64,000 nt of DNA from Candidatus Cloacimonadales bacterium (GTDB taxonomy: Bacteria; Cloacimonadota; Cloacimonadia; Cloacimonadales; JAFGVF01), in NCBI GenBank assembly GCA_963663475.2, contig CAXXJV010000001.1, positions 128,001 through 192,000 on the forward strand, given 5' to 3'. A model generated the notes under the pieces. The model saw nothing but the letters and a program-made list of their open reading frames with translations, was not told the DNA's origin and searched no databases. Position numbers and translations under genes: made by a program. Numbering within the stretch: the stretch's first letter is position 1; each line of letters starts with the position of its first letter. Below, in pieces: positions 12,507 through 45,274 of this stretch.

Positions 12507-12572
12507 TATTTGTTTTATTTTTTTTATTAAGGGTTTAAATTTCATGATGAATTTGAGCTTTAGTGAAGTAAT

Positions 12573-12734
12573 ATCCGCAAAAATAAAAGAGAAAATCCGC
12601 AAGAAAAAAAGAGAAAAGTAGTTAAATCCTATTCTAATAGTCCGCAAGAATAAATGAGAAATTGTATAAAATGAATGTAAAAAAATAAAAGTCTGCAAAA
12701 AAAGAAGAGAAATTTCTCATTTAATTTTGCAGAC
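12573..12734 (+). repeat. Left-end putative transposase-binding sites (5 x 22 bp)
   Basis: RTCYGCAARAAWARAWGAGAAA-like copies at 12573, 12595, 12640 and 12691, and an inverted copy at 12713. Confidence 0.8.
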
Positions 12735-12747
12735 TTTTAATAAAATA

Positions 12748-13485
12748 TTATAATGGATCTTCAGGTCCTGAAGCATCAATTCTCTTAAACCATACAATAA
12801 TTTTATAGGTAGAACCAACCGTTAAACCACCTATATTAATCTTATCCAAATGCTCTTTAGTAATACCAGCATAGTCTTCTATTTTCTTATATATCTTAGT
12901 AGTGATGGTGTTTTCCTGAACATAGAAGTCACCTTCATCTTTAAGAATTTGGATTGCTAAGCCAGTGGATACAGATCCTCGTAAATCTGAGCGAAGATAA
13001 GCAAAATTCTTTAATACGCTTTCATTAATATCAACAGAAGTATTATCTGCTACATATCTCAAATCATACATATAAGGCATTCTTCCAAATATCAAATCCA
13101 ATAACTGATAAACATTACTTCCATATGATAGACCCCATTGACCATAACTACATAATATTGAATTAGCCGAGTGTCCTCCAGTAAATAAATGATCACTCAA
13201 ATCCTTCAAATTCCTAGTAAATTCACCAGGGTTAGTAGTCCCGACAATAGCTAATAACAGACTTTCCAAACTACCATTTACCAATGCATCAGCAGTTTGA
13301 GAATCTATCTGTTCTGCAGTATGCTTACTTGGAGTACCAGATAAATGCTCACTTAAAGCATCTCCAATCCCTTCATTAGCTTTCATTTTAGAATCAATCG
13401 CATCAAAGTTTCCGTTCACATCATTAGCCCATCCAGAAGAGCCTTCAGCAGGCTTTTTTAAGCCATAATTAGTTGTCTCAGTCAT
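12748..13485 (-). CDS. Putative tail fibre/receptor-binding protein
   Basis: N-terminal TTNYGLKKP...NGNFDAID, typical of tail-fibre attachment segments; last gene of the tail module. Confidence 0.55.
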   Translation of the reverse strand: MTETTNYGLKKPAEGSSGWANDVNGNFDAIDSKMKANEGIGDALSEHLSGTPSKHTAEQIDSQTADALVNGSLESLLLAIVGTTNPGEFTRNLKDLSDHLFTGGHSANSILCSYGQWGLSYGSNVYQLLDLIFGRMPYMYDLRYVADNTSVDINESVLKNFAYLRSDLRGSVSTGLAIQILKDEGDFYVQENTITTKIYKKIEDYAGITKEHLDKINIGGLTVGSTYKIIVWFKRIDASGPEDPL

Positions 13486-13497
13486 ATTATCCTCCTT

Positions 13498-13941
13498 TTA
13501 GAATCCCCAGCTTAAACCCCATGAATTACCCCACCCAGGAGCCTCATCATAGTTAATAGGAGATAGTTCTTTATATATTGCTTTTAATTCAATTCTTGTT
13601 ACTTCAGTAAAGTATCTTAAGTCATCAACTTGACTAGGGTATTTCTCTATAATCACAGGGAATTGCTTCTTACCAGTCTCATCATAATATTCTATATACA
13701 GTTTCCCTTCTTCCATTAGGTAGTCCTTAAGCTCGTTATATTGATCAGTATTTAGAATAGCATCAACTTTAAAGCTATCTTCATAATAAGGCTCTCTCCT
13801 AATCATTATTGTAGGATCATAGGCATTAGTCTTATCAATTAAGTACTTCTTATGGGGAGAATAATCTACTTCAGCATGTTCTAAGGTAAGCATTGAAACA
13901 CTGGAAGCTATTCTGATAAATCTTACTTCTTTATTATACAT
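13498..13941 (-). CDS. Phage tail module protein
   Basis: Position after the tape measure; coupled reading frames. Confidence 0.5.
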   Translation of the reverse strand: MYNKEVRFIRIASSVSMLTLEHAEVDYSPHKKYLIDKTNAYDPTIMIRREPYYEDSFKVDAILNTDQYNELKDYLMEEGKLYIEYYDETGKKQFPVIIEKYPSQVDDLRYFTEVTRIELKAIYKELSPINYDEAPGWGNSWGLSWGF

Positions 13942-15328
13942 TAGTCCTCCATGCTATTGCCTGGTATTCATCTTTGACATAATCTCTTTTAAGCTCTGTA
14001 AGGAATAACTGTTCTTCCTTAACTCTTATTATATCAAAGACAGACAGGTTATTCTTGTTTATATCATCTATTTTAAGCTTATATTTGATTGCTTTATTAG
14101 CAATTGAAGTATAATAGTCAGTTAAGAGAATTTTTAAAGGTTCAGCAGAGTTGTAAAGAGCATCTAAACAGCTAAAATCTGGTACTATCTGCTTAAAATT
14201 TCTAATCTCCTCACATTCAGTTACATCACTTGTTAGATCTCCATGATCAGTATTACCCCAGTGGTTCCTGACTATCCTTAAGAAGCCATCAGCCTCTCTT
14301 TTGATAATAGTGAAGTTATGAATTACCAGGAAGCATTTTAAGGCAGTAAGATACTTTCTATTATCAGATTTTAGGATTAAAGAAGTTGGAAATACCTTGC
14401 CTGAAATTGTAAGAGTTCTGTTATCAGAAGCAACCTTATAAGTTGTTCCGTATATCTCAAGGAAGGAATACTCTCTCCTGCCAATCCAAGAAGTGTCTTC
14501 ATAGTGTTCAGGATAATCTTCTTTAGCTGTTTCAATAGCGTTTCTAGCACTATCAAGAGAAGAATAAACTCCAATCTTCTCACTCTGGATATCCATATCA
14601 ATACAGACTTTATTTGATATTTCAGCAACAAAACTCCTCATTAATAAAGTATAGTCGTTATCTCCTTGATTAAGTACATCTCTTTCTGTGATAACCCAAT
14701 CAATCCTCCTAAACTTAATTATTATAGCATCATTGTGAAAAGGAAGAGTATAGCTGTCATAACCAATATCTGAAGTCCTTTCTAAGCAGGCAGTCTCATA
14801 AAAGGAGGCTATCTCATAGAAAGGATAATCAGTCAGCTCAGTATTATTATAGATAATGTTTTTATCTAGGAAGTTAGAAGTTCTGTTATACCTTTCAGCT
14901 ACCTTCTGACTTATCCCACTCATGATAAGATCTAAAGTCCTATTAGCAGGGAAGTAAGTAGTGTCCTTTTCTAAACTCAGCAAATATGAATAGGAATAAG
15001 CCTTAAATTTAAGCACTTTATCAGGATGTTTAAATCCAAGTCCCTCTAAAAGCACAGCACCTCTAAAATCAAGGATATTACCCCTATAAACCTTAATATC
15101 ATAGCTACTAATAGCATTTCTAACTTCAAGTCCATTAACCAAGTTAGCCTTAAGCCAATCATCCAGAATAATCTCAATTTCAACTCTATCAGGTTCCTGG
15201 TCAAAGTTGTTATTGATAGCTACCTTCTGAGGAGAGTATTCTATATTAACAAGTCCTGTATTGAAGTTATAAACTACAGGATTAAAGCCAAATTCAGCAG
15301 AAACAAACTCTACTCTATAATCTACCAT
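13934..15328 (-). CDS. Putative tail tip/hub protein
   Basis: Directly downstream of the tape measure; 464 aa. Confidence 0.5.
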   Translation of the reverse strand: MVDYRVEFVSAEFGFNPVVYNFNTGLVNIEYSPQKVAINNNFDQEPDRVEIEIILDDWLKANLVNGLEVRNAISSYDIKVYRGNILDFRGAVLLEGLGFKHPDKVLKFKAYSYSYLLSLEKDTTYFPANRTLDLIMSGISQKVAERYNRTSNFLDKNIIYNNTELTDYPFYEIASFYETACLERTSDIGYDSYTLPFHNDAIIIKFRRIDWVITERDVLNQGDNDYTLLMRSFVAEISNKVCIDMDIQSEKIGVYSSLDSARNAIETAKEDYPEHYEDTSWIGRREYSFLEIYGTTYKVASDNRTLTISGKVFPTSLILKSDNRKYLTALKCFLVIHNFTIIKREADGFLRIVRNHWGNTDHGDLTSDVTECEEIRNFKQIVPDFSCLDALYNSAEPLKILLTDYYTSIANKAIKYKLKIDDINKNNLSVFDIIRVKEEQLFLTELKRDYVKDEYQAIAWRTNV

Positions 15329-18249
15329 CTGCTCCTCACAATACTTCCTTCTTCATTCTTTTCATTAAATTTAGCACTATCAGCCTTATCAATTACTTCA
15401 TTGGCAGAGATGTAGTTATTTACAGTCATATTCTTTTCTCTAAATTCTTGTCTTAAAGATCTGATTTCAGTGATTAGATCATTAATGAAAGAATTGTTTG
15501 AAGATACTAAACCACCAGAAGCGTATGCTACTTTAGGAACAGCAGGGATATTCATCGTTGGTAATTGTATTCCAGTTAAAGCCTCTTTAACCTTATTAAT
15601 TGGTGCATTATTCAAGAATTCAAAGAATGGCACACCAAGTTCTCTAACTCTCTGCTTTCTAGTAATAAACTCATCCCCTTCAGCTTCAATCAAAATACCT
15701 CCCTTAGCATGTGAAGGTCCTGCAAGCAAACCTGCTAGACCACCCTTTTCTGCCTTAGGAATATATTTTGTGTTTTTAATTTTGCTAATTTCTGCAGCTA
15801 CTAGAGCTCCCTGAGTGGCTGCAACAATCATATTGAATGGGAAAGGATAATCTTTAAATGCTCTAGCTGCAGCCTCGAAACCACTTATTGTTGCTTGTGC
15901 TATTGATAAGCCTTTACCAATTGAAAATAGTGATTTAGATTGACCTTGATAAGCATTCATCAGCTTTGCACCTATTGCTACAGAGCTTTGGAGTTGTTGA
16001 ACTCTTACAGCAAGGATAGCTTTACTTTTGGCTTCTTCAATTTCAACTTCTGTTTTACCTGATTCAATAAGCCAATCATGATTTAAGTCATAATACTTTT
16101 TGATTTTCTTTATCTTATCCTCAAGCCCATCATCTTCTTCATCGAATTTTGATAGAGCTTCTTCAGAAGACAACTGATTAATTTTATCTCTATACTTCTC
16201 ATATTCATCACTATCTTCTTTATATAGTCTTTTAAGCTCAGCCATTAAGTTTTCATATTGATTTAAGAGCTTTGAGTTTGAATCTGAATCTAAAGCATTA
16301 ATTCTAGAAATAAAGTTCCCTTTCTCCTGAATCATCCTCATCTGGCTTGCTTTCTGAATGCTTTCTAATTCATCTCTTGTAGTTTGATACTCCTGGCTTT
16401 CTTCTCCATAAGCTTCTTTTACTTCTTTAAGGTAGTTAGCAAAGTCAGCTTTCATTTTATCATAGCTTATAGCTGATAATTGCTGAAGGTTAGCATAATA
16501 TTGAACCATCTCTAACTTCTTAGTATTGAGAGAATCAAGCAAAGCTTGCTTAGACTTTTCTTCCTCTATGCTTTCTGCAACTTGTGCCTCTGATTTGATT
16601 CGCTTTTCTTCATCAGCAATTTGTTTTTTATATACTAACATCTGTCTGTCTAAATCTAATTTAGCTTCAGCATTTTCAGCATCAAGCTTTCCAAGAGCAT
16701 CATATTCAGATTGTAGCTGACTTATCTTATACTGGTAGAGTTCTATACCTGAAAGACTTGCCTCATACTGCAGACGTTCCTTCTTAGCAAAATAATCTCT
16801 TGTAGCTTGAACATCAGCATCTCTTATCTTTTGTTTTAATACCGCTTCTTTGGCTTCCAGTTCATTCAGTTTATTGTAGAATTCATCAGCATCATCATTA
16901 GGAAAGTATATTATATCACTATCTCTATCAGCTCCTACCGAAGCATAAAGCTTATCTATAGATTCACTAATATCTTGCAAATCTTTCTTAGCTGTTGCAT
17001 AATCTAATGTATCGGCATAAGCTCTAGCCTCTTTTGTAAGTCTTTTAAACCTCTCTTCTTGATTCTCTATACCTCTGTTAGACTCATCAATAGCTTCATT
17101 AAAATTAGTCTGTTTTTCTTCAGCAAATACTACTGAAGAGGCATAAAGTCCTACACCAATTGCAGCAGCTGCTACAAGTGAAACCCAATTACCAGTTAAA
17201 GCAACCCCAACAGCCTTAGCTGCATTTAGGGCTATTTGTTTTGTTGTAAGATATGCTATCCTAACAGCAAGTACGCCTAATACAGATATTAACACTTTTA
17301 CAAGACCTGGGTAATCATTCAAGAAGCTAACGACTTTAGTAAGGACCTTTATTAAAGGAGTTAGAGCTTGATTTATAAAATCACCAACTTTCTCTCTCAG
17401 ATCACCTACTAAGTTTTGATATTGAACCATTGCACCTGAACCGCTTTCTGTCTCTGCTTTAGATAACTCGAAACCATCGGCCATAGCTTTTTGTAATATA
17501 GCCATCTTCTCAGTTTCATCTTTAGCACTCTGCAATGCAGGGATATATCTCTGGAGTTGAGTAAACTCACCTTCATAAGCAAGAGCTATTCCTTTCATGG
17601 CAGTCTCTCTGCTAAGTCCTGCAGATGCAAAAGCTGTAGCCAACCCTATTGAACCTTGTAAAGCTTCTTCCATCTTATCTGTAGCAAGCCCCATATTAGT
17701 TGCAAGAGTAAGAAGTTGCATACTTTCCTCATCACCTACAGTAGTTAGCTTTTGAGTCTCACTAGCTAATTTCATAACTAAATCAACATTCTTTTCAGTA
17801 GCAGTACCTTTAACTCTCATAGCATTTATAATGTCTAACTCTGCCTTTTCTTGAGTATAAGAAGCACTCACATACCCACCTAATGCGGATTTGACTTTAC
17901 CGTACAGCATTGATAATCCACCTAATGCTAAAGTTATCTGGCTCATAGTCTGAATAAGTGGCTGACCATCGCCCACAAACTTGGTCTCTTTTTCATCAGG
18001 TACTTCTGCAATAGCACCTTGAGCATCTGAAGAAGATGCAACTACTCCTGAAGCATCACCGTCAACACTAACAGTCTTACCATCAAGATCGTCAAGATTG
18101 CTTTCAGCCTCACTTACATCAATATCCAGCTTAACATTATTACCCAATGACTTTTGAACATCACTTATCTCACTTTGTATTACAGAGATAGCTCTACGAG
18201 CCTTATCTATATCAATCATCAAACTGAATTTTAAATTACTATTTGACAT
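15322..18249 (-). CDS. Tail tape measure protein
   Basis: 975 aa, helical/coiled-coil with a hydrophobic mid-segment; C-terminal GPSHAKGG..IEAEGDEF and YASGG. Confidence 0.85.
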   Translation of the reverse strand: MSNSNLKFSLMIDIDKARRAISVIQSEISDVQKSLGNNVKLDIDVSEAESNLDDLDGKTVSVDGDASGVVASSSDAQGAIAEVPDEKETKFVGDGQPLIQTMSQITLALGGLSMLYGKVKSALGGYVSASYTQEKAELDIINAMRVKGTATEKNVDLVMKLASETQKLTTVGDEESMQLLTLATNMGLATDKMEEALQGSIGLATAFASAGLSRETAMKGIALAYEGEFTQLQRYIPALQSAKDETEKMAILQKAMADGFELSKAETESGSGAMVQYQNLVGDLREKVGDFINQALTPLIKVLTKVVSFLNDYPGLVKVLISVLGVLAVRIAYLTTKQIALNAAKAVGVALTGNWVSLVAAAAIGVGLYASSVVFAEEKQTNFNEAIDESNRGIENQEERFKRLTKEARAYADTLDYATAKKDLQDISESIDKLYASVGADRDSDIIYFPNDDADEFYNKLNELEAKEAVLKQKIRDADVQATRDYFAKKERLQYEASLSGIELYQYKISQLQSEYDALGKLDAENAEAKLDLDRQMLVYKKQIADEEKRIKSEAQVAESIEEEKSKQALLDSLNTKKLEMVQYYANLQQLSAISYDKMKADFANYLKEVKEAYGEESQEYQTTRDELESIQKASQMRMIQEKGNFISRINALDSDSNSKLLNQYENLMAELKRLYKEDSDEYEKYRDKINQLSSEEALSKFDEEDDGLEDKIKKIKKYYDLNHDWLIESGKTEVEIEEAKSKAILAVRVQQLQSSVAIGAKLMNAYQGQSKSLFSIGKGLSIAQATISGFEAAARAFKDYPFPFNMIVAATQGALVAAEISKIKNTKYIPKAEKGGLAGLLAGPSHAKGGILIEAEGDEFITRKQRVRELGVPFFEFLNNAPINKVKEALTGIQLPTMNIPAVPKVAYASGGLVSSNNSFINDLITEIRSLRQEFREKNMTVNNYISANEVIDKADSAKFNEKNEEGSIVRSRW

Positions 18250-18290
18250 TTCTTACCTTCTTCTTATTTTTTCTATGTGAGGTGAATATT

Positions 18291-18494
18291 ATGACTTTTA
18301 ATGAAGTTTTGTCTGTTATTGTGCCAATTATAGCACTTTTCATTATTATATTTATCCCTGCTAAATGGGGTAAACCAATTACCTGGCTTCAAGATTTGGG
18401 AAGATATCCTCAATCTAAAAAGAAAGCTGAGAATATAACTAAAACAAAGACCTATCATATCAACATATCTCTTGATGAATCTCATCAAAAATAA
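18291..18494 (+). CDS. Small membrane protein, antisense to the tail operon (moron-like)
   Basis: GAGGTG RBS then ATG at 18291; MTFNEVLSVIVPIIALFIIIFIPAKW; reads on the + strand although the ORF track labels it -. Confidence 0.6.
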   Translation: MTFNEVLSVIVPIIALFIIIFIPAKWGKPITWLQDLGRYPQSKKKAENITKTKTYHINISLDESHQK

Positions 18495-18599
18495 CTTCCT
18501 ACTTGCTTTCATCTCTATATTTACTCAACAGATAAACAGCTTCATCAAGCTCAATATCATCATACCACAAACCCAATCTTTTAAGCATATAGATATAGT

Positions 18600-18920
18600 C
18601 TAAGAAGACATTCCCTGTGTTTTTTTTAGAATCCCCATTTTTTTGATTACTGATTCTGGTAAGAACTTGATGATACCTGTAAAAAAATCTGATACAAGTT
18701 GTTGCACCTCCTCAGGCTCCATTTCTCCAAAATCAACATCATTGTTTCTGGTAATTGTTTGTAAGAATTCAATAGCTTTTCCACCTGTTAGCAAATCATT
18801 TAACAGTTCATCTAAGTTCTTATTGGCTTTAGCTTCTCCATCAAGGACACCATTCAAACCTACTTCATCTAACAATCTCTTTACCTTAACCAAAGTATTA
18901 ATATTTGTATATACCTTCAT
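18600..18920 (-). CDS. Tail assembly chaperone (gpG-like), with a -1 frameshift extension to 18499
   Basis: Upstream of the tape measure; A AAA AAA slippery run near the 3' end; open -1 frame NTGNVFLDYIYMLKRLGLWYDD...ESK*. Confidence 0.7.
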   Translation of the reverse strand: MKVYTNINTLVKVKRLLDEVGLNGVLDGEAKANKNLDELLNDLLTGGKAIEFLQTITRNNDVDFGEMEPEEVQQLVSDFFTGIIKFLPESVIKKMGILKKTQGMSS

Positions 18921-19366
18921 CTTATCTCCTTATATTCTCCACTTTTCATCATCTCAGATAGTTCTTTAGCTCTATAACCTACCTGCACAGCCCATTTTGA
19001 TCTAAGCATCTCTTTACTAGCTTCATCAAAGTCTTCAGACTCTATCAAAGCAATTGTCTTCTTAAATGCTCCAAATCTTGGTATTCCTAAGTTAAAAGCC
19101 ATATCAATAACAACAGCCTTTCTAACAGCATTAAGTTTCTCAAACCAGTCATATCTTGCTTTAAGAACTTTAATCACACTATCAATATCATGCTCTAACA
19201 TTAGATAAGCTTCTTCTTCACTTATCCCATTATCCTGTAGATTGCGACCAACCCCAATAGTTAGCTTGCCTGCAGTACAGCGGTAAGGCTTAAGTTTTAG
19301 CCCTTCATGCTTTACTAACATCTTTCTAACTAATTCTTTATATTCAGCTTTAATGTGTCTCATCAT
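18917..19366 (-). CDS. Phage lysozyme (T4-lysozyme-like/GH24 endolysin)
   Basis: HEGLKLKPYRCTAGKLTIGVGRNL, DMAFNLG and SKWAVQVG.RA. Confidence 0.9.
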   Translation of the reverse strand: MMRHIKAEYKELVRKMLVKHEGLKLKPYRCTAGKLTIGVGRNLQDNGISEEEAYLMLEHDIDSVIKVLKARYDWFEKLNAVRKAVVIDMAFNLGIPRFGAFKKTIALIESEDFDEASKEMLRSKWAVQVGYRAKELSEMMKSGEYKEIR

Positions 19367-19410
19367 TGCTTTCTCCTTAAGAGATGAAGCAGACCGCAGT
19401 CTGCCTTTGT

Positions 19411-20196
19411 TTAATAGTTCTTTATCAGAATCTCTGTCTTTGGTAGTGTTTTCCCTGATAGAGAATAAAGTGTTTCAGCCTCCTGGATATCATAACCTTT
19501 GTATAATTCTCTTACTTTAGGATGATCATTATAAGAGAGTAACCATTTGCCTTTTACCTTGCCAAGAAGCTCTCTAAGTTCCTTATGCTGAGTAAAAGCA
19601 TCAACAGAATCTCTGTCATAAAGTTTCTCTTTCTCATAATAAGGAGGATCTACATAAAAGAAGGTAAAATCCCTATCATACTTAGTAATTAATTTCTCAA
19701 AGCTAAGATTATCTATTACCACATTAGCCAGCCTTTTAGAAGCTTTATCAACTTTATCCTTATTGAATAGAGGGATAATGTTAGAACCACCTCTTAAAGC
19801 AAATGAACGAGATAATCCACCAAAAGAACAAGACAGCTTATAATAAAAGAATACAGCTCTCTCTAAGTCTGTTCTAGGTTTCATTTCAATCATCTCTTTA
19901 AAAAGCTCTCTGGAAGCCATATATTGTTCTAACTCCTTATGAAAAGCATCTGGGTGGTATTTGATATATCTCCAGAAGTTTATCAAATCACCATTAATAT
20001 CATTAAATATTTCTCGGTAATTCGGTTTATTCTCTATTTTCCAATCTTTCGCATCATTGCTTTTAGCAAATAAAATCCAACCTGCTCCACCAAATGGCTC
20101 ACAGTACCAATTATGTTTTGGGATAAGTGGAATGATCCTTTTTCTTAAAAGTCTCTTTCCTCCTACCCAGCCTATTATACTACTCTCGAATGTTAT
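19411..20196 (-). CDS. Dam/D12-class DNA adenine methyltransferase, apparent ATA start
   Basis: The frame extends upstream of the tracked ORF through IGWVGGK and YCEPFGGAG; DPPY catalytic motif; no ATG/GTG/TTG upstream of these motifs; GGAG lies 4 nt before ATA. Confidence 0.75.
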   Translation of the reverse strand: MTFESSIIGWVGGKRLLRKRIIPLIPKHNWYCEPFGGAGWILFAKSNDAKDWKIENKPNYREIFNDINGDLINFWRYIKYHPDAFHKELEQYMASRELFKEMIEMKPRTDLERAVFFYYKLSCSFGGLSRSFALRGGSNIIPLFNKDKVDKASKRLANVVIDNLSFEKLITKYDRDFTFFYVDPPYYEKEKLYDRDSVDAFTQHKELRELLGKVKGKWLLSYNDHPKVRELYKGYDIQEAETLYSLSGKTLPKTEILIKNY

Positions 20197-20247
20197 ATTT
20201 CTCCATTATATTACTGGGAACGCCTGCATCCTGCAGGCATTCCATGA

Positions 20248-20655
20248 TTAAAACAGCTTCTTAGCTAATCCTTGAGCAAGTCCAGTCATAGCCGTTCGAC
20301 CTAATCCAGTAGCTAAGTTTTTAAGCCAACCTGAACCATCTTGTTCTCCTGCTTTCCTAGCAGGTTCTGTTACTATATCATATACTTTCTGCACTGGATT
20401 ATCCGTTGCTAGTTTCTTAGCTAATTTAGCCATTTCAGCAGAAGGAATATTCTTAATATCCTTCTCTATTTGTGATGCTGGATGTTCATACCTGGAAGCA
20501 CCCAGTATTGCTTCTATTACTCTTTGAACAGTAGGAAGTACACTATCGATAGAAAGCATTTTCTTTCTAATCAGATAAACTACTCCTATAATGATCATTG
20601 TTACTACCACACTTATTGCAGATACTACTGCAGGATGATTTAGTAATTCACTCAT
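20248..20655 (-). CDS. Membrane protein, holin candidate
   Basis: N-terminal TM helix; near the endolysin. Confidence 0.45.
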   Translation of the reverse strand: MSELLNHPAVVSAISVVVTMIIIGVVYLIRKKMLSIDSVLPTVQRVIEAILGASRYEHPASQIEKDIKNIPSAEMAKLAKKLATDNPVQKVYDIVTEPARKAGEQDGSGWLKNLATGLGRTAMTGLAQGLAKKLF

Positions 20656-20656
20656 C

Positions 20657-20854
20657 TTATCCTCCTATTATCGGTTTCAAAACACTGGCTATCATTACTC
20701 CAGCCATTAACCCATTCAACCAGATGACTATATTTAGCTTAGTTTCCACTCTGCTTAATCTCTCTAATATTCCAGGTCTTCCATTACCATCTAACTTCTT
20801 TTTGATATCTTTAATATCTCCTACTAAACTCTCGTGGTGTTCGCATACTGACAT
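20657..20854 (-). CDS. Small coiled-coil plus TM protein, holin candidate
   Basis: ERLSRVETKL followed by a C-terminal hydrophobic helix. Confidence 0.45.
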   Translation of the reverse strand: MSVCEHHESLVGDIKDIKKKLDGNGRPGILERLSRVETKLNIVIWLNGLMAGVMIASVLKPIIGG

Positions 20855-20868
20855 CTCAACTCCCTTGT

Positions 20869-21405
20869 TTAAGCTTCAGGAATTGAATCAATAATAAAAT
20901 ACCTATCCTTAGTAGGACCTGAATATTCAGTGCTTATAGTAGCTGTATATAAGCCATTAAACTCATTACTTCTCTCATAGCTCCATCTCATAGCATTGAA
21001 GATTAAACAGCTTGCTTTATCAGCTGACCATAAAGCAATAGTCCTAATTGCTTTGTTTAACTGACTTTCAAGCCAGTCTTTTCTAGCCTGATTAAGACCT
21101 ATTAAAGTCAGTTCGATTGTATTAGAACGCTTACCTTCAATTAAGAAGTTTGTTGTTTTAAACTTAGCTACCTTAGATTCTTCTTTACCAGGATTCTCTC
21201 CGAGGTCAGAAATCTCATCAAAAGCAGAGTTTAAAAAACCTTCAAACTCTCTTTGATTTAACAATACTTCAGGAGGTATGGCTTCAATAGCTTCAAAAGC
21301 ACCATCTCCTAACCAACAAGTACCATGATTAAAAACAGCTATCTGATCATGAAAATTTGTTACTAATTTATCTAAACTAGGTTTTGTAGGTATTCCACCT
21401 GCCAT
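20869..21405 (-). CDS. Putative major tail (tube) protein
   Basis: Size, beta-rich pattern and position after the capsid gene. Confidence 0.45.
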   Translation of the reverse strand: MAGGIPTKPSLDKLVTNFHDQIAVFNHGTCWLGDGAFEAIEAIPPEVLLNQREFEGFLNSAFDEISDLGENPGKEESKVAKFKTTNFLIEGKRSNTIELTLIGLNQARKDWLESQLNKAIRTIALWSADKASCLIFNAMRWSYERSNEFNGLYTATISTEYSGPTKDRYFIIDSIPEA

Positions 21406-21416
21406 AATCTACCTCC

Positions 21417-22331
21417 TTATGAAGTTGGGTCTGCAGTAGTTTTATCAGAGACCTGGTAAACCCAAGAGTCTTCTAATTTACCTCTACCAAATGTTCTGTA
21501 AGGTACATATCTATCAGTAGCAGATAAGTCATTAGTACTTGATAGAGTTTCCATTAATTGATTACCATACATATAGCAATACTTGTGGCCGAAGATAACA
21601 GGAGTACTATCATTTTTTACTGCAGTAGAGTTAATAGCACCAGCTTTATCTACCTTTGGTAAGTGATTTAATAGGATCACATCAAAACCCATCAATCGAC
21701 CTATCAAACCATTTGGAATCGGCATTTTACTCTGTTGGCCAATTTTATCAGCAGAAATGAACTGATCAATTTTGAACAATTGAGATTCATGTTCAGGTCC
21801 AATTAAACAGAATCTACCTGTTAGAGGTGCATTCTTTTCATTAAGATGTTTTCTTGCGTTGATGAAGTCATCTAAAGTAATCTTATTAGCTGTAGTCGCA
21901 TGACCCGCAAAATCAACCTTTTGCCCTGCAGGAATAGCTCCAATCAAACCTGTTAAGATATTAACATCTTCTTTGGTTAAAATGTGAGAACCAGAATCTT
22001 CAGACTTTTCTTTCAATGTTTTTACTGTTGTTTGATAATCAGTATCTCTTTGCACTATAAAAGGATTACCTGCTTTTTGATCTACTGCTAAATCAATAGA
22101 ACCTTCACCTGCACCTGAAGGAGCTTCGAAAGCTTCACCAATTCCCACAGTCTGGCCTGACTCAGTTGTAATATAAGGAACATGAATCACCTTCATTCCT
22201 TTCTTAGCAAACTTTGAGACATCATACAAATAGCTCATTGCATATCTATTATCCTGGCTCTTACGTTTAATTGCATTAAGGGTTTCTGTAGTGATTAAAT
22301 CACCAAAAATTGTGTTACTTGCGTTTGGCAT
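21417..22331 (-). CDS. Major capsid protein
   Basis: Follows the protease; DFINARKHLNEKNAP..GR and NGLIGRLMGFDV..NHLP HK97-fold-like motifs. Confidence 0.8.
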   Translation of the reverse strand: MPNASNTIFGDLITTETLNAIKRKSQDNRYAMSYLYDVSKFAKKGMKVIHVPYITTESGQTVGIGEAFEAPSGAGEGSIDLAVDQKAGNPFIVQRDTDYQTTVKTLKEKSEDSGSHILTKEDVNILTGLIGAIPAGQKVDFAGHATTANKITLDDFINARKHLNEKNAPLTGRFCLIGPEHESQLFKIDQFISADKIGQQSKMPIPNGLIGRLMGFDVILLNHLPKVDKAGAINSTAVKNDSTPVIFGHKYCYMYGNQLMETLSSTNDLSATDRYVPYRTFGRGKLEDSWVYQVSDKTTADPTS

Positions 22332-23371: not shown

Positions 23372-23592
23372 TTAACCTTCCTCATATCAAAAGTAATCAA
23401 ATTTCTACCTAAGTTTGACATTTCCTCAAACTCACTTGTCGATAATTTGCTACAGTTTGTAATAGTGATATGACTCTTTGACTGAGCTGCTAAAAATATT
23501 AATTCCTCAATACTGCTATTGGTGAAGTTATCGCACTCTAGTATTACATTACTACCATTCTTTACTGCTTGTTTAATACTATCGAAGAACAT
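23368..23592 (-). CDS. Hypothetical protein
   Basis: AAGGAGG RBS; overlaps the protease start. Confidence 0.6.
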   Translation of the reverse strand: MFFDSIKQAVKNGSNVILECDNFTNSSIEELIFLAAQSKSHITITNCSKLSTSEFEEMSNLGRNLITFDMRKVK

Positions 23593-23708: not shown

Positions 23709-23774
23709 ATGGCTCCAATAACTGGGAACGTGGATGACCACATCCGCATATTAAATATTATTAAAGGAGCAATA

Positions 23775-35720: not shown

Positions 35721-36467
35721 TTAACTGGGATTGTGGGCATCCTTGCCCGCATTAATTCCCCCCTGTGGAGGGGTGTCAGTGTATTTCACTGACGGGGTGG
35801 TCTCCGCAATTTGCTCTTCAAATCTTCTCTGCTTCTCTCTTATCACCTCATTAATTTTGTCTAAATCCATATCCTGGAAGTAGAGTGCTAATTTATAGTT
35901 AAGTTCTTTCCCAGAACAATTAAAGTAACCTTTCATGTTATCAATAAACTGCTCAACTAAGACATCTTTTAATGTCTTAGAATCCTCTTTTTTCTTAACT
36001 CTTATCTCCTTCACCTTCTCACTAAGCTCTTGTTGAGATAGTTCTTCAGCTTGTTTTAACCACTCCTCCTGGACTACATAATCAGAATCTTTAATAAGAG
36101 GATGAATAGTATTCAATCTATCCAAACCTATCTCCTGAACTGTAGCAGAATCAATGCCCATATCTTTAATAAAGTAATCATAAATCTTAACTAACTTATT
36201 AGCAACACTTGCAGGCAGGTTATGTTCAATCTCTACAAAATCTCTAAAGTTCTTATAACCTTTAATCTTGAATATGCGTTTACTCTTTATCTCAGAAAGT
36301 ATCTCTCCTAGGCTAATAAAGTCTTCTTCTAACCTGCCTTTCATTACTTCAACAGCCTTAAATCTCTCTTCTGGTGTCATCTCCACTGGGAGCGCCGACA
36401 TCCCTGTCGGCATCTTCCTTTCATCTCCGCCATTAATTTTGCTTCTTCCAAATAATTCTCTACTCAT
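35721..36467 (-). CDS. Hypothetical phage protein
   Basis: FISLGEILSEIK....GYKNFRDFVE pattern; repeat-derived segments at both ends. Confidence 0.65.
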   Translation of the reverse strand: MSRELFGRSKINGGDERKMPTGMSALPVEMTPEERFKAVEVMKGRLEEDFISLGEILSEIKSKRIFKIKGYKNFRDFVEIEHNLPASVANKLVKIYDYFIKDMGIDSATVQEIGLDRLNTIHPLIKDSDYVVQEEWLKQAEELSQQELSEKVKEIRVKKKEDSKTLKDVLVEQFIDNMKGYFNCSGKELNYKLALYFQDMDLDKINEVIREKQRRFEEQIAETTPSVKYTDTPPQGGINAGKDAHNPS

Positions 36468-37021
36468 CTTTTTTCTCCTTCTTTATTCTTAGTGTAATTT
36501 GTGTAATTAGCTTGGGATGGCGTAGCTTTGCGAAGACAGCTGGATAGATTTTCTTTTCCCTGCTCTTTATAATACTTCAACATAGCTATCATTCCTCTTT
36601 TCTGCTCATCATTAAGTACGTTCCAGTGCAAAGTATGATACTTCTTAATCATGTACTTCTGTACTCTTAACCAATCCCAGCCAATCTCTTTCATAAGGTG
36701 CCAGGCAAATCTACCTTGAGCATCTAAGAAGCCGATTGAGTACTTATCTAATTGTCTTTGAAGCTCGTTGCAGCTATCAGGTATATAATCTCCCTTAACT
36801 ATTCCCAGCACAGTCTGAAGTTGCTGAATTGTTAGCTTTCTTAAAGAACTACCGAATCCCCAGGACTTCAACATGTCATGAAATTCTTCATTGCTCCAAT
36901 TGTGTTGCTTCTTACTGCTTATCATTATATGCTGTCTCAAGCTCTTAGCATAAGCTTCTTGTTTAGCACTCATTCCACTGGGAACGCCTGCATCCCTGCA
37001 GGCATTCATTGCATTTTTCAT
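36464..37021 (-). CDS. GemA/Mu gp16-like (DUF1018) protein
   Basis: SSLRKLT..QL..V and L...Q...MIAMLK pattern; canonical position after MuB. Confidence 0.55.
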   Translation of the reverse strand: MKNAMNACRDAGVPSGMSAKQEAYAKSLRQHIMISSKKQHNWSNEEFHDMLKSWGFGSSLRKLTIQQLQTVLGIVKGDYIPDSCNELQRQLDKYSIGFLDAQGRFAWHLMKEIGWDWLRVQKYMIKKYHTLHWNVLNDEQKRGMIAMLKYYKEQGKENLSSCLRKATPSQANYTNYTKNKEGEKR

Positions 37022-37551: not shown

Positions 37552-38307
37552 TTACCCTCTATTGAACTTAAAATTGTATTTTTTAATATCTTCTTTAGTG
37601 ATTCTACCTAAGTTCTCACTCTTAGCCAAAATCTCAAATTTCTTTATATAACTCTCTAAATTGTGTAAATTACCTCTCATCTCTTCGATCATTCGTCTAT
37701 AAACCTCAGGGTCAGCTTCAACTTCCATAGTCTTACCAATAATGCTGATTATGTCTTCTCTGGTAAGGATATCAAAAGGACAGTAGTTAGTAATCCTTCC
37801 TGAGAAGTGAGAATCGTAGCTTTCAATTTTCTTCTTGGTATCTTCCTCTCCAATCATCACTATTTTAGCACCAGCCTTATCTCTGAAGTCTCTTAACAGC
37901 TCAACGATATCCCACTTCCTGAATTTAAAAGCTACATTAACTTCATCTATAAAAAACACAAATGGTGGCATACCTGAAGCAGATCTTCTTAAATTGATCT
38001 CTTCAAACAACCTGATACATTCTTTCGCTATTTCTGAAGAGTAACCCCTAGGAATGATATCATTACCAGTAAGAATAAAGTTCAATGTCCTATAAATCTC
38101 TCTTAAGAAACTTCTACCTGATTCTTTGGTTTCAATTCGATAATATCCCCAGTCATTTTTAGGAAAATTCTTCAAAGCAAGTTGGCTTTTACCAGTACCT
38201 GTAAAACCATAAAAAACTACTAAATCGCCCCCATTTCGGCTACATATCTCTTTGATAATTTGATTAGCCTTAACTACGTTTTTTGTTTCAATTAATAAAT
38301 TTTTCAT
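37552..38307 (-). CDS. MuB-like AAA+ transposition ATPase
   Basis: GFTGTGKS, FFIDE and LRDFRD...IVMIG; follows the transposase. Confidence 0.85.
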   Translation of the reverse strand: MKNLLIETKNVVKANQIIKEICSRNGGDLVVFYGFTGTGKSQLALKNFPKNDWGYYRIETKESGRSFLREIYRTLNFILTGNDIIPRGYSSEIAKECIRLFEEINLRRSASGMPPFVFFIDEVNVAFKFRKWDIVELLRDFRDKAGAKIVMIGEEDTKKKIESYDSHFSGRITNYCPFDILTREDIISIIGKTMEVEADPEVYRRMIEEMRGNLHNLESYIKKFEILAKSENLGRITKEDIKKYNFKFNRG

Positions 38308-38317
38308 TTTTACTCCT

Positions 38318-41077
38318 TTAGTTCAGACCAGCCTGCTTAAAAGCTTGCTCCCACTCCTGGTCTTCTTCTTCTTCTTGATTGTCTAATTCTTCGATTTGTT
38401 TTCTAATTTCTTCTAATTCTTTATCTTCTTTACTTATATATTCTTGCTCAACAACTTGAGCATTAATAACTTCTTCTTCAGTAACAATTATCTCGTTTTC
38501 AGGTAATAGTTCGGTTTTCTTATCTCTTGGCTTGTAATCTAAAGAAGTGTAACTATCCTTCTGCTTAGTATGTAGTCGATCCTGATCAGCTATAAGTTCT
38601 TCAACTGGAGCTTTTAATACCTTTTGAACCTCTTTCATACTCTTAGCTCCAGTAGCTCTTAAAGCTAAATAATACCCAATACCATGCTTTTCATATCTTC
38701 TAGTATCTCTTAAGGAAGTCATATCATCATCATATTGATAACCTGCTACAAAAGCTCTGGCAGGTTCATCATAATATTCTCCCATTGTAGAAGCTATCTT
38801 TACACTCCAGATATCTCTCTCATCGTAATAATAGAGGATTTTCTTACCTATTAAGCTGGCAAAAATTGCATGTCTGTAATAGATACCACCTACATAAATA
38901 CCATCTCTTTGAACCTTTACTTCCTTTAGATATGGATCTCTCATATACCTATCTAAAGTGGCTTGTGATGGAACTACCTTGTCTTTAAGATTATAAGCTT
39001 CTATTGGTGATAAAACCTTACCTTCGATATTCCTGTTAATTGTACATAACTCAGTTGAAGTATTCCACATGTGGATAAAAGCTCTTAATAGTTCTTCAAA
39101 TTCTTCTAATGTAGGTATAGCATCACTAAATTTAACACAAAGCTCCCTGTTGGTCATTTTGAGCATTTCTTCTCTTTCTTCAGGTTTCCTTCCAAAATAG
39201 ACAGGGAACTTATCTTCAAACCTACTAAAACACCACTTCCAAAATGGCTCTATCATCTTTGATTCTGAGTTCTTTGGTATAGTGAAATGATACTCTTTAA
39301 TCCCAATATTCTTATACATACCTAAATCACCTGAATCAAGCATAGCCTGTGCCCTCTGTTTACCCTTAGTATTTCTTTTTTTATAAATAAACTCTTCAGG
39401 TGCAAAGGCTATATTCCTATATGATTTAGCATTATCAGTTCTGATATGCTCAGGTAGTCCAAAATGTTCAATTCCATCTCGCAAAGCATTTCTGACTAAG
39501 TTACCAGTTTCTGTTTTACCCACTGCACAGCCAGTTATAGCTTTTGTGGCTATATCAATCCACCAAACCACTACAGGCTTAAAAATTACGCTGTATTCAG
39601 CCTTTTCTCTATAAAATGGACTAAAGACAGGCACACTTGAATGTTTGCCGTCACTCTCCCATATTTGCCCAGGCAAAGCGTTATTGATTCTGATAGTGTG
39701 AGGCCTTGCTTTATTCTTATACCCTTCAGGACCTTCTAAAGCTGACATACCAAGTACATCTTCTCTGGTCTCTTTCATTATATTGAATAAGGTCCTCTGG
39801 GATATCTGAAGCTTTAAACCCTTTTCAGCTAATTTGTTTTTAACAATAGTCATTACTTCAGTACTATCCCAGCTAATCCTGGCTTTTGATACATTCTCAA
39901 TTAACTTTCTTACTTGGTTGCTGACTTGTGATTTTCTTCCTACCACACCTCTTTTTTGCTCAAGTAAACTAACTGGATAAGCTGAATCACCCGAGTCTCT
40001 ATACTTCTTCTCCCACTTCTTAACAGTCTTAATTGAAATACTCTCCACATCCATCTTCTTCAGGATAAATGGTAATATCTCACCTTTATTAAGCTTAATC
40101 TCAAACTCATGATCAGCTCGGCCAAGTTTCTCACCTCTTAGCTTAGCCTGCTTTTTATATTCTAAATACTTATCAATAATAGCTTTTCTTTGCCAGGCTT
40201 TCTCTCTCTCAGCCATAGAATGAACATTAAATTCATTCTTCTCAGCTTCCAGCAAGTCGCCTAAGGCTCTGTTACCATCTAAGACTTCTAACTCCCATCT
40301 TCTTTTAACCATATCAGATAATCCATCTATTGAAATAAGAGTCCTTGTCTTGCTAACCTTATCAGCAACAGTAATTGAAATCAGCTCTTTACTCTCTATT
40401 CTTCTATATATAGTCCTTTCACTTAAACCAGATAAAACAACAGCCCTATCAAGAGGTATCCATCTTAATGGATCTAATTCTGAAGGGATAGTTCTCTCAA
40501 CTGGGACCACCGACATCCCTGTCGGCATTAATTCCCCTCTTGAAGAGGGGTGGCTTGGTATTTCCAAGTCGGGGTGCTTCTTCCTTTCATTAAAACCACT
40601 TGCACTTTGATTTTCAATTTGCACATTGCTTTGCACATTGCACATTGGTTTTAAAATTGCACTTTGATTTTCATTTTGCACATTGCTTTGCACATTGCAC
40701 TTTGATTGCACATTGTTAATCTCTTTATCTTTCAATGCTTTATCTAATTCTGCACATTGATTTTCCAGTTTTGGCAGACCCGGCTCTGCCATCTTTTCAT
40801 TTTTTTGCTTCTTGAGGCTAAAAATTTTTGGACTTTCTTCTGTTTCAACATTAAAAGTTGCACATTGGATTTGGGAACGATCTACACCATTATCTTCAAA
40901 AATTGCACTTTGGTTTGCTTCTTTTACAAACATAAAAACAACAGGTCTTCCACCTCTGGGGTTCTTAACCTCAGCAACAGGCCACTCACCTTCGTTTCTT
41001 TTATTAATAGCTGTTCTTCTGCTAAATCCATAAAATGCTATCAATTCTTTATATGTTAACCACATAAGCATCTCCAA
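38318..41077 (-). CDS. MuA-like DDE transposase
   Basis: WESDG, RTDNA, SKMIEPFW catalytic triad; C-terminal YYDERD Mu-transposase-like domain; N-terminal HTH modules. Confidence 0.9.
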   Translation of the reverse strand: MEMLMWLTYKELIAFYGFSRRTAINKRNEGEWPVAEVKNPRGGRPVVFMFVKEANQSAIFEDNGVDRSQIQCATFNVETEESPKIFSLKKQKNEKMAEPGLPKLENQCAELDKALKDKEINNVQSKCNVQSNVQNENQSAILKPMCNVQSNVQIENQSASGFNERKKHPDLEIPSHPSSRGELMPTGMSVVPVERTIPSELDPLRWIPLDRAVVLSGLSERTIYRRIESKELISITVADKVSKTRTLISIDGLSDMVKRRWELEVLDGNRALGDLLEAEKNEFNVHSMAEREKAWQRKAIIDKYLEYKKQAKLRGEKLGRADHEFEIKLNKGEILPFILKKMDVESISIKTVKKWEKKYRDSGDSAYPVSLLEQKRGVVGRKSQVSNQVRKLIENVSKARISWDSTEVMTIVKNKLAEKGLKLQISQRTLFNIMKETREDVLGMSALEGPEGYKNKARPHTIRINNALPGQIWESDGKHSSVPVFSPFYREKAEYSVIFKPVVVWWIDIATKAITGCAVGKTETGNLVRNALRDGIEHFGLPEHIRTDNAKSYRNIAFAPEEFIYKKRNTKGKQRAQAMLDSGDLGMYKNIGIKEYHFTIPKNSESKMIEPFWKWCFSRFEDKFPVYFGRKPEEREEMLKMTNRELCVKFSDAIPTLEEFEELLRAFIHMWNTSTELCTINRNIEGKVLSPIEAYNLKDKVVPSQATLDRYMRDPYLKEVKVQRDGIYVGGIYYRHAIFASLIGKKILYYYDERDIWSVKIASTMGEYYDEPARAFVAGYQYDDDMTSLRDTRRYEKHGIGYYLALRATGAKSMKEVQKVLKAPVEELIADQDRLHTKQKDSYTSLDYKPRDKKTELLPENEIIVTEEEVINAQVVEQEYISKEDKELEEIRKQIEELDNQEEEEDQEWEQAFKQAGLN
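40600..40912 (+). repeat. Cluster of 12 TTGCAC(A/T)TTG decamers inside the transposase 5' region
   Basis: Counted directly (one copy has C at position 1); includes an imperfect 57-bp tandem duplication; copies fall in different reading frames. Confidence 0.85.
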
Positions 41078-42263: not shown

Positions 42264-42271
42264 AAAAACTT

Positions 42272-43006
42272 ATGATAGGATTACGATTTAAAGAGTTTAG
42301 AAAGGCGTTAAACCTTACTATAGAGGAACTTGCGACTGCTATAGGCAAAAGTAAGGGTGCGTTAAGTAAAATTGAAAATAATCAAAATATTCCTAAATCG
42401 GACATCTTAGTTTCCTTTAATAAACTTTATAATCTAAACATCAACTGGCTTCTTTCAGGTAAAGGGGAGATGTTCTTATCCCAAGAAATAGATCAAAAAC
42501 CTAAACACAAAACAGAACTCAATGCCGACAAACTCAAACAATACATCGACCTGGGTAAATCAAAACTAGAGGATGAACAAGCCAAGAGCATTAATAATCC
42601 TTCTTCTGTTGTTTCACTTCCAATTGTAGGTGAAATTGCAGCAGGTAACCCTTTAGAAGTTAGAGATTCAGATCTTCTTGGTAAAATACTAGTATCTACT
42701 GAACTGATCAGTGATCCTGAAAACTTTTTTTGCTTCAGGGTAAATGGATGGAGCATGAGTCCAGAGATACAGCATAACGATGTCGTTATAGTTAATAAGA
42801 TATATGACTATGATGATATGGATAACAGAATTGTAGCTGTCAGATTAGATGATGGTATCACACTTAAATTACTTAAGCTTGATCATGAAAATGAATGCTC
42901 CTGGTTAATGCCAATCAATGATGACTATAAACCTATTCTTATAAATCAATACTCCTCAATAGCGATGTTGGGAGTTCTAGAATTCTTAATTAGGAGTTAT
43001 AAGTAA
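42272..43006 (+). CDS. CI-like repressor (XRE HTH + S24 peptidase)
   Basis: N-terminal HTH; VGEIAAG, VNGWSM and TLK autoproteolysis motifs. Confidence 0.9.
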   Translation: MIGLRFKEFRKALNLTIEELATAIGKSKGALSKIENNQNIPKSDILVSFNKLYNLNINWLLSGKGEMFLSQEIDQKPKHKTELNADKLKQYIDLGKSKLEDEQAKSINNPSSVVSLPIVGEIAAGNPLEVRDSDLLGKILVSTELISDPENFFCFRVNGWSMSPEIQHNDVVIVNKIYDYDDMDNRIVAVRLDDGITLKLLKLDHENECSWLMPINDDYKPILINQYSSIAMLGVLEFLIRSYK

Positions 43007-43049
43007 ATAACTCAAGGCATAATCCTAACTAGTGTATTTGGAGGCTTTT

Positions 43050-44423
43050 ATGAAGCTAAGACCAAAGAATGGTCCAATTGATTTTGGTTATTTTGTTGAT
43101 TATTATTTAGAGTTACAATTAAATTTATCTGAAGATTTTAAAGATTCCGATGTAGAAATATTAGGGAATTGGAAAAGTTCAACTAGTAAATATTATGATT
43201 TAGTTCTTATACAAAAATCGAAGGAAATTGCATTTTTTGAAATAAAAGATAACATTTCCTTAACATCAAGTAGCAATAATACATCACAAGAGAATTTTGA
43301 ATCTACTTCCCTTTTTTTCTTAATTAGCTTAAAAGAAGGAAAGATTTATTTGACTGACTATAAAAAATCAAACCCGTATCAAGAAGTAACATATAAACAA
43401 GTAGTAGATAAAATTAAAGATCTAATGCGTAAATTGAACGAAGATATTTTAGATGTTATTGGTCGCGATTTCGTTGATTATATGAAAATGGAATCTTTAG
43501 GAATGAAGTTAAAAGATGATACTATAACTTTAATTAATAGAAAATTAAAACCAATAATGTTCACTTTAAATCAGCAACTAGAGTTAGAATTCAAAAATAA
43601 AACAGAAAGTGGATTCGAAAATCAACTCTTTAAAAGTATGTTAACAGAATCTAATAATAGAATTGCTAGATATATGTCTTTGGAATCTTTCTATTTAACA
43701 ATAAAAGAAAGCAAGATGTATTTTGGAAGTATCTTTGCTATGAATGATAAAAGAGAATTCGGGTTCTTCGAGAAAATTGTAGAAAAAGAAAAGTCTCATT
43801 TAGAAAAATGCACAGATAGCGATATTGAAATTGGTAACAAGAATTTTATCACTTCATATGTTACAGAAAAAAAACAAGATAGTCTGACTTTATGGAGACT
43901 TTACGGTGATAATGCAACTGGTGTATGTTTAGTTTTCCAGATTGATAATAAAAAAAATCAACCTCCTTTTTATATTAGTAAGGTCAACTATTGTGATGAA
44001 TCAGAAGATGATGCAGCTATTTTCTTAAAGAAGTTAAGAACTTATAAATATCAAACAAATAGTCCGACACAACAATTTTATACATTCAGATTCAATAAAT
44101 CTTTGAAGTGGAAGTATTTCTTTAAAGCAAATGATTTTAGTGACGAAGATGAAGTTAGAGTTCTTTATCATTATAACGAAAGTGAAGAAAAATCCGACAA
44201 GATTAAATTAGAGTGGAGGTTGATTAATAATATAATTGTACCAAGTGTATTAATTCCAATCAACTATGACAAATTCCCACTAACTTTAAAAAAAATAATT
44301 ATTGGGCCAAGAGCTTTCGAAAAAGAAGTGAATGTTAGGCAAATTAAACAATTTTTATCAGATAATGGATTTGATACAAAAAATATTGATGTGAAGCCTT
44401 CAGAAATAGATAATTACAGATAG
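43050..44423 (+). CDS. DUF2971-domain protein with N-terminal PD-(D/E)XK-like segment
   Basis: MNDKRE, DSLTLWRLYGDNATGVC, KANDFSDEDEVR and IIIGP; YDLVL...FFEIK. Confidence 0.75.
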   Translation: MKLRPKNGPIDFGYFVDYYLELQLNLSEDFKDSDVEILGNWKSSTSKYYDLVLIQKSKEIAFFEIKDNISLTSSSNNTSQENFESTSLFFLISLKEGKIYLTDYKKSNPYQEVTYKQVVDKIKDLMRKLNEDILDVIGRDFVDYMKMESLGMKLKDDTITLINRKLKPIMFTLNQQLELEFKNKTESGFENQLFKSMLTESNNRIARYMSLESFYLTIKESKMYFGSIFAMNDKREFGFFEKIVEKEKSHLEKCTDSDIEIGNKNFITSYVTEKKQDSLTLWRLYGDNATGVCLVFQIDNKKNQPPFYISKVNYCDESEDDAAIFLKKLRTYKYQTNSPTQQFYTFRFNKSLKWKYFFKANDFSDEDEVRVLYHYNESEEKSDKIKLEWRLINNIIVPSVLIPINYDKFPLTLKKIIIGPRAFEKEVNVRQIKQFLSDNGFDTKNIDVKPSEIDNYR

Positions 44424-44488
44424 AATAAATTTTATTAGCGATTATCAGCTAGATTTTTACATTTCTACATAATTAAATAAATGGAGTT

Positions 44489-44995
44489 ATGATGACAGAC
44501 AAAATTCAGACATTGCTTATCAAGGCAATAAAAGAATCACAGATATTGAGAATAGATTTTAGAAAGCAGATAAAACAACAGTTATTAAGCATTAATGAAA
44601 CTGATTCTGGTGTTTACATGTTCTTTGTAAAGCTTCCTGATGATAAGACCGAAGATGATTTCATGAAAGTTTGGAAAGAACACACAAATTATTTTGATTC
44701 ATCCCCAAAATTAAATGGAAATTATAAAGACCTTAGCATATTTCACAATCCAAATGCAATAATAAAGTTATATGTAGGACAATCAATGAATCTACTCCGT
44801 AGAATTACTGAACATTGTACTATTTCCGAAAACAATCGTATAGGAAGCTTAAGGTTATCAGAATTCTGTGATAATAATCCTTCTTATAAACATTCATTTA
44901 TCCTTTTTAGCTTTTCTTTTGATGGGGATGTAAAACTTAGAATAGAACTTGAGAGTGAATTAATGCAAAGGTATAAATTCATCGTTGGACAATAA
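44489..44995 (+). CDS. GIY-YIG nuclease family protein
   Basis: SGVYMF...LYVGQSMNLLRRITEH...LE..L. Confidence 0.7.
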   Translation: MMTDKIQTLLIKAIKESQILRIDFRKQIKQQLLSINETDSGVYMFFVKLPDDKTEDDFMKVWKEHTNYFDSSPKLNGNYKDLSIFHNPNAIIKLYVGQSMNLLRRITEHCTISENNRIGSLRLSEFCDNNPSYKHSFILFSFSFDGDVKLRIELESELMQRYKFIVGQ

Positions 44996-45223
44996 TTTCT
45001 CATTTAATCTTGCAGACTATTAAAGGTCTAAATTAGTTTTTTTCTCATTTATTTTTGCAGACTTTCAACTAAGATAGGCCTTTTATATTTTTCTCATTTA
45101 TTTCTACGAATTTATAAGAAATTCAACTTTTTTCTCATTAATTAAAAATACCAATAATCCCAGCAAGCCTACTTATAACACACACAACCCAACTTTTATT
45201 ATTTCTCACTTATTCTTACCCCC
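44996..45223 (-). repeat. Right-end putative transposase-binding sites (5 x ~22 bp)
   Basis: TTTCTCAYTWA... copies at 44996, 45041, 45090, 45131 and 45202, inverted relative to most left-end sites. Confidence 0.8.
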
Positions 45224-45274
45224 CTTATGAAGAGTTAAGAATAATATTCTGCTATTGACACTTGCCCAGCTTTA

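Follow-up and report, generated by a model that had tools for sequence, protein, structure and literature searches.

Can a transposable prophage of the Mu type end in TA rather than in the canonical TG...CA dinucleotides? This question is raised by a 64,000-nucleotide stretch of contig CAXXJV010000001.1 from a Candidatus Cloacimonadales bacterium (positions 128,001 to 192,000; hereafter, the window, meaning the whole stretch analyzed), in which a 32,659-bp element at 12569..45227 reads 5'-TAA inward at each end. The terminal TG/CA is among the most conserved features of elements moved by DDE (Asp-Asp-Glu) transposases; it has been called highly conserved in IS3, Tn7, Mu, and retroelements, and is strictly required in the CRISPR-associated transposon (CAST) system studied (PMC10201428). 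Mu itself has CA ends and a 5-bp stagger (PMC3562280). The original prediction, made from this DNA, described a Mu-like prophage with TA...TA termini belonging to an undescribed lineage. Here, we conclude, with a probability of roughly 0.85, that the element is a Mu-type transposable prophage of a Cloacimonadota bacterium, with TA...TA ends, that was inserted by DDE transposition between TetR and metK-like genes.

Termini of the element and of its relatives

The element is bracketed by the direct repeat TGAAG, with the left copy of the target-site duplication at 12564-12568 and the right copy at 45228-45232, so that the coordinates as read bear out the duplication originally claimed. The repeat is exactly 5 bp long, the adjoining bases differing on either side such that no extension is possible. 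When the ends were shifted by up to 6 bases and repeat lengths of 4-9 were allowed, the sole solution of at least 5 bp was 12569..45227, the other two being 4-bp subsets of the same repeat. The left end reads TAATATCCGCAAAAATAAAAGAGAAA on the plus strand from 12569, and the right end reads TAAGGGGGGTAAGAATAAGTGAGAAA in reverse complement from 45227. At both, GAGAAA ends 26 nt from the terminus, which places the first transposase-binding site in equal register, as was also originally stated. The insertion point is the spacer between the TetR gene and the metK-like gene; Rfam and tRNA scans of the window yielded no matches.

With as many as 3 mismatches allowed, the end motif, GCARRAAWAAADGAGAAA, matches the window at 15 places, compared to 4.66 expected, a number reached in none of 100 shuffles. 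Nine of these matches cluster at the termini and point inward, five within 170 nt of the left terminus (12577, 12599, 12644, and 12695 on the plus strand and 12713 on the minus strand) and four within 232 nt of the right terminus (44996, 45041, 45090, and 45202, all on the minus strand); the remaining six are scattered, with 2-3 mismatches each. Delimited as 22-bp sites, the tail-side end array (12573..12734, plus strand) consists of four direct sites (12573-12594, 12595-12616, 12640-12661, and 12691-12712) and one inverted site (12713-12734) that makes a palindrome with the fourth. The repressor-side end array (44996..45223, minus strand) consists of the terminal site 45202-45223, a G-rich variant, followed by 45090-45111, 45041-45062, and 44996-45017, along with a weaker half-site at 45131-45152 that is absent from the motif matches at up to 3 mismatches.

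The element encodes a MuA-like DDE transposase of 919 amino acids (38318..41077, minus strand), which matches PHROG 310 (transposase) at 3.2e-48 over residues 206-910, and, directly downstream, a MuB-like AAA+ transposition ATPase of 251 amino acids (37552..38307, minus strand; PHROG 296, 'DNA transposition protein', 1.6e-18, with weak matches to AAA_22 and AAA). Compared with sequenced phages, the transposase matched 8 records (five phages) at 20.5-25.6% identity over 28-60% of its length. A word-seeded search of 5.8 billion proteins recovered six relatives, and a profile search of 1.84 billion representatives recovered 41 at E <= 1e-30, 529 at E <= 1e-10, and 1819 at E <= 1e-3. Judged by these searches, the transposase family is small and lies at the edge of the MuA superfamily.

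A scan of one genome per species identified 11 loci with a transposase relative, 10 in metagenome-assembled genomes (MAGs) of Cloacimonadota and one in a MAG that bears the label Ratteibacteria. The same end array is present upstream of the transposase gene in five of these loci (L001, OY782831.1; L002 and L004, OY829950.1; L003, OY782781.1; L006, JAKPKU010000157.1), the transposases of which are from 94% to 36% identical to that of the window; a single genome contains both L002 and L004, which are distinct prophages. The repressor-side array is 95-96% identical to that of the window in L001 and L002, 86% in L004, and 75% in L003. In all six elements bearing this end, including that of the window, it begins with TAAGGGGGG: positions 1-9, and with them the initial T, do not vary, and the base at position -1 is A, C, A, C, C, and A. 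Across the 15 pairs, the 40 nt inside the end are on average 81.7% identical (minimum, 55%), and the 40 nt outside are on average 31.5% identical (maximum, 47.5%). Because homology starts at the same T of TAAGGGGGG in six independent insertions, the flanks of which are unrelated, the TA at the repressor side is fixed by comparison, and because the five bases outside the end differ in every case, TGAAG is target DNA lying outside the element. The comparison of prophages with homologous transposases that was proposed as a check on the original prediction thus yielded repressor-side TA in five relatives. At the center of the presumed 5-bp target, T is found in five of the six insertions, a sample too small to indicate a target preference.

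Among the other loci, L005 begins within the element, at a contig end, and L009 and L011 are truncated. The prophage DNA of L005 (1-13093) is 98.75% identical over 13 kb to that of L006 (5551-18715), and the two MAGs are labelled Ratteibacteria and Cloacimonadota, respectively; one of these bins is probably mis-assigned, given that near-identical prophages occur in MAGs of two phyla. A termite-gut-type Cloacimonadota MAG, WRLO01, contains a shorter MuA/MuB element in at least 5 copies with mutual identities of 87-91% (at 8378 and 10509 in L007, 9122 in L008, and 9218 in L010, and in L009 and L011); its transposase, of 664 amino acids, starts approximately 700 bp from the end. At L010, an inverted TAAGGGGG word accompanied by three CTTTGAGG repeats stands in place of the end.

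Points against the TA...TA reading and its alternatives

Several observations weigh against the proposed reading. The tail-side end, of the TAATATCC type, was seen in one copy only, that in the window, the loci of the relatives reaching approximately 12.7 kb past the transposase start; its boundary is supported by the 5-bp duplication and the site register in the window. No empty site came to light, and no search aimed at one was made. The multi-copy MuA/MuB element of WRLO01, which is more distant, is ambiguous at its boundary: all three copies in L007 (two copies, one nested in the transposase gene of the other) and L008 share TAAAGGGG, and two of the three also share TTGT just upstream, so that a TG start is possible there. 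The large terminase gene of the window element is frameshifted near 26345-26372, with residues 4-243 in one frame and 254-500 in another, for which reason this copy may be packaging-defective. A structure model of the transposase was too poor for use of its catalytic core (mean predicted local distance difference test score, pLDDT, of 46; core below 50), and we infer both catalysis and the position of cleavage from the established Mu pathway.

The alternative that survives best, though improbable, accepts the repressor-side TA and holds that the tail-side boundary is wrong, TGAAG at 12564-12568 being coincidental and the true left end lying elsewhere, perhaps with another dinucleotide. Besides the single copy examined, the 107 occurrences of TGAAG in the window speak for it. 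However, the repeat sits at the sole position predicted by the register of the first site, where the chance of identical 5-mers at the separation of the element is 0.0017 (54 of 31,331 position pairs). Furthermore, TAA is read at both ends, no copies of the motif were found near the end to the left of 12569, and the DNA beyond is chromosomal, comprising the TetR gene and the operon of an Mbh/Mrp-type complex. We also considered a minus-strand motif match at 22676-22693 of L003 as a distal end in that relative and rejected it, since it lies within an open reading frame (ORF).

Less probable still is a canonical TG...CA element, the terminal dinucleotides of which decayed by mutation after insertion to leave a dead prophage. 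The change amounts to a single transition per end, G to A at position 2, and the frameshift in the terminase gene, which can be either real decay or an assembly error (in the L005 relative, the large terminase is one ORF of 500 amino acids), is evidence of some decay or error in this copy. Against such decay, TA is present at the repressor side of all six elements despite their divergent transposases, one genome holds two distinct prophages of this kind, the duplication is intact, and all other large ORFs of the element are open. It is barely credible that the prophage and its duplication were mimicked by an assembly artefact or a chimeric join: the source is apparently an environmental assembly and the one frameshift might be an assembly error, but the same end sequence adjoins different host DNA in five other assemblies, GC content is continuous over both prophage-host junctions, and host genes lie on either side, those on the right including the metK-like gene, an IS21 element, and housekeeping genes.

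The reading that we prefer, a Mu-type prophage with TA...TA ends, is supported at the repressor side by six insertions and at the tail side by the duplication and register in the window, as originally proposed. Under this reading, the MuA-like transposase would bind the site arrays, pair the ends, and place one nick per strand on the 3' side of the terminal A; the GAGAA core of the first site lies 20 nt further in from this nick. The resulting ...TTA-3'OH ends would be joined to target phosphates with a 5-bp stagger in target DNA presented by the MuB-like ATPase, and gap filling by repair or replication would generate the TGAAG duplication. The S24 repressor would silence the element; once the prophage is induced, the Mu-like terminase and portal would package its copies. 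Relative to canonical ends, the second base pair alone is changed, from G:C to A:T, with the terminal T:A and the presumably cleaved A retained. A 2003 paper by Lee and Harshey reportedly, going by its title alone, indicates that it is the T that is important for assembly; it is not used as support here.

Gene content, cargo, and repeats

Pfam profiles detect Mu-transpos_C in the transposase at 25.5 bits (cutoff, 21.7), with rve at 31.6 (cutoff, 32.6) and DDE_2 just below their cutoffs, and the profile of the transposase family matches the MuA structures 1bcm and 4fcy at 3e-4 to 5e-4. In the match to 1bcm, D548 falls on the aspartate of the MuA core, and D476, D548, and E610, all invariant in an alignment of 7 transposase sequences, are the proposed catalytic residues, E610 being assigned from the usual pattern of the fold. 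The structure model was used only to delineate two similar N-terminal helix-turn-helix units, at residues 1-52 and 203-250; the linker of approximately 150 residues between them (53-201) is predicted to be disordered. Because the phage-transposase profile starts only at residue 206, the first of these units appears to be an extra DNA-binding domain.

On the other side of the transposase gene, at 42272..43006 on the plus strand, lies the repressor gene, the product of which combines HTH_3 and S24 (LexA-like) peptidase domains. Early genes of the Mu type, on the minus strand downstream of the ATPase gene, encode a GemA-like protein (36464..37021; Pfam match below cutoff) and a DUF3164 protein (35092..35703). 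The packaging and connector block (23709..29935) is on the plus strand, opposite to the early and the head-tail genes, an orientation conserved in each of the six loci long enough to include it (L001-L006). It encodes a tail-completion protein (within 23709..29935), a Mu gp36-like protein identified by Pfam (24279..24656), a DUF1804 small terminase (25152..25625), the large terminase (25588-27116, in two ORFs at 25588-26445 and 26373-27116), and a fusion of Mu portal, Mu F, and PBECR2 nuclease domains (27167..29935; Portal_Mu, 1.4e-56; Phage_Mu_F), all on the plus strand. The head, lysis, and tail block (12748..23592, minus strand) includes a ClpP-type protease/scaffold (Mu-like_Pro; 22331..23371), the major head protein (21417..22331), a lysozyme (18917..19366), and the tape measure (15322..18249), and its three distal genes yielded no family matches. 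With a tape-measure gene present and no tail-sheath family matched in the element, the tail is likely non-contractile. A scan of 41 ORFs of the element detected neither an integrase nor any recombinase of the tyrosine or serine type.

Two cargo genes on the plus strand occupy the interval between the repressor and the end (43032..44995), a DUF2971/PDC-S31-like gene (43032-44423), which is a candidate defence gene, and a weakly GIY-YIG-like gene (44489-44995). This slot between the end array and the immunity region contains different DNA in every one of the relatives L001 (5270-7210), L002 (6063-7593), L003 (6141-7735), and L004 (6630-7601). The two prophages that share a genome, L002 and L004, probably differ in immunity, since L004 has no match to the repressor of the window. 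The element also carries a complete type II restriction-modification pair on the minus strand (30239..32426), consisting of a restriction enzyme (30239-31537; PADLOC REase_II, 4.6e-120) and a Dam-class methyltransferase (31530-32426; MTase, 5e-108), with Pfam in agreement. A second methyltransferase gene (19411..19986, minus strand) is likewise of the Dam class; its frame (19411-20213) extends upstream of the listed ORF through the S-adenosylmethionine-binding motif, and this extended frame lacks an ATG, GTG, or TTG start.

GC-rich hairpin repeats of approximately 29 nt (ACTGGGA, a stem-loop, and GCAT) are present in 17 copies in the window, compared to 0 expected. Ten are in the prophage, all on the plus strand (24190-24218, 27121-27186, 28448-28536, 35064-35092, 35724-35752, 36385-36413, and 36977-37005), seven in the right host flank (45275-45381, 47155-47183, 49698-49726, 54083-54111, and 60004-60152), and none in the left 12.5 kb. 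Several lie within ORFs and leave the frames unbroken, including three in tandem in the linker between the portal and Mu F domains and others in the GemA-like gene and in the ORF at 35721-36467; a related unit (40520-40592) is found in the disordered linker of the transposase. The same repeats occur at other positions in L001, L002, and L004, and they look like repetitive extragenic palindromic (REP) sequences or miniature inverted-repeat transposable elements (MITEs) able to insert in frame. The IS21-type element, 2 kb to the right of the prophage (IstA, 47379-48860; IstB, 48857-49585), is bracketed by two identical 29-mers of this hairpin family in the same orientation (47155-47183 and 49698-49726).

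Relation to other transposable phages

Like Mu and Mu-like phages, the element combines a MuA-type transposase gene followed by a MuB-type ATPase gene, multiple inward-pointing sites at its ends, and Mu-type portal, F, gp36, protease, and DUF1804 genes, along with a short target duplication (5 bp, from one element) and varied insertion sites (from the flanks of six). This gene content confirms its original identification as a Mu-like transposable prophage. In contrast to the TG...CA termini of Mu-like phages, the ends are TA...TA. In particular, of the phages with trimmed records, the two nearest, BalMu-1 and Villandry, have TG at the start and CA at the end, which makes TA a property of the lineage of the window. 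Unlike Mu, the element has an S24/LexA-like repressor, a packaging block on the opposite strand, and a tail that is likely non-contractile. The transposase is only 20-26% identical to those of canonical Mu-like phages over 28-60% of its length; with this best match and a host in Cloacimonadota, the lineage is, as predicted, unsampled among sequenced phages.

The best E-value among the phage transposase matches (6e-10, 25.6% identity) is that of Fusobacterium phage phiRTG5 (OR492272.1). Near the repressor end, its record contains TAAGGGGG followed by GAGAA repeats, resembling the terminus in the window, and TG precedes TAAGGGGG, 20 nt outside the first GAGAA, the register of TA here. This register suggests that the phiRTG5 end is a canonical TG, but the boundaries of the record do not coincide with the phage ends; TG in this position is consistent with the dinucleotide having changed while its spacing from the first site stayed constant. 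The TG, TAAGGGGG, and GAGAA repeats (36-60) lie 35 bases inside the first base of the record, and this 'complete genome' probably includes flanking DNA on one side and is approximately 2 bases short on the other. No second copy of the phiRTG5 end was found in the phage collection.

The assumption in the original prediction that elements of the Mu family end in TG...CA holds as a characteristic but is not universal: 28 of 74 complete Leptospira transposable prophages depart from it, having TA at both termini with a duplication of 6 bp, and together constitute a single group (PMC8705779). WETA1 of this group gained a copy on a second replicon, which indicates that TA-TA elements transpose, and the authors in 2021 left the occurrence of the TA-TA type in other bacteria for investigation (PMC8705779). 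The termini as such had therefore been described, and of the novelty claimed at first it is the lineage that stands. Both the WETA1 group and the element described here are Mu-like prophages with TA at both ends and a short target duplication, and both were found by flank comparison. They differ in duplication length (6 bp compared to exactly 5 bp), in size (37.9-40.4 kb compared to 32.7 kb), in host (a spirochaete compared to a member of Cloacimonadota), and in the catalytic triad, which is predicted as D163/D269/E305 in the WETA1 TnpA (spacings of 106 and 36) and proposed as D476/D548/E610 here (72 and 62); furthermore, the Leptospira TnpA was placed nearest to phage B3 (PMC8705779).

The element is probably of an origin independent of the Leptospira TA group, from which it is set apart, on the published description, by duplication length, phylum, and apparent DDE spacing. 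The 8 phage and 6 plasmid records matched by the transposase include no Leptospira record, and these collections may hold no Leptospira prophage. What the window adds is a second TA-ended lineage, in a new phylum and with a 5-bp duplication, the terminal dinucleotide itself being already known (PMC8705779). In the literature searched, in which subscription journals were poorly covered, no other TA-ended transposable phage was found since 2021 and 'Cloacimon' was never paired with 'Mu-like', so that a transposable phage has apparently not been noted before in Cloacimonadota.

The Leptospira group was previously the only described exception among transposable phages, and the question of whether such ends occur in other bacteria is now answered with yes. 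Tools that locate prophage borders by seeking TG...CA would misplace ends of this kind. We give slightly better than even odds to a broader proposal, namely, that TA termini are ancestral to, and shared throughout, a MuA/MuB family specific to Cloacimonadota, which comprises both prophages and smaller multi-copy transposons, and that the trait arose independently of the Leptospira TA group through a change at position 2 only, with the distance to the first site fixed. If this is true, the family would provide a second natural system for the study of how a DDE transposase reads the penultimate base.

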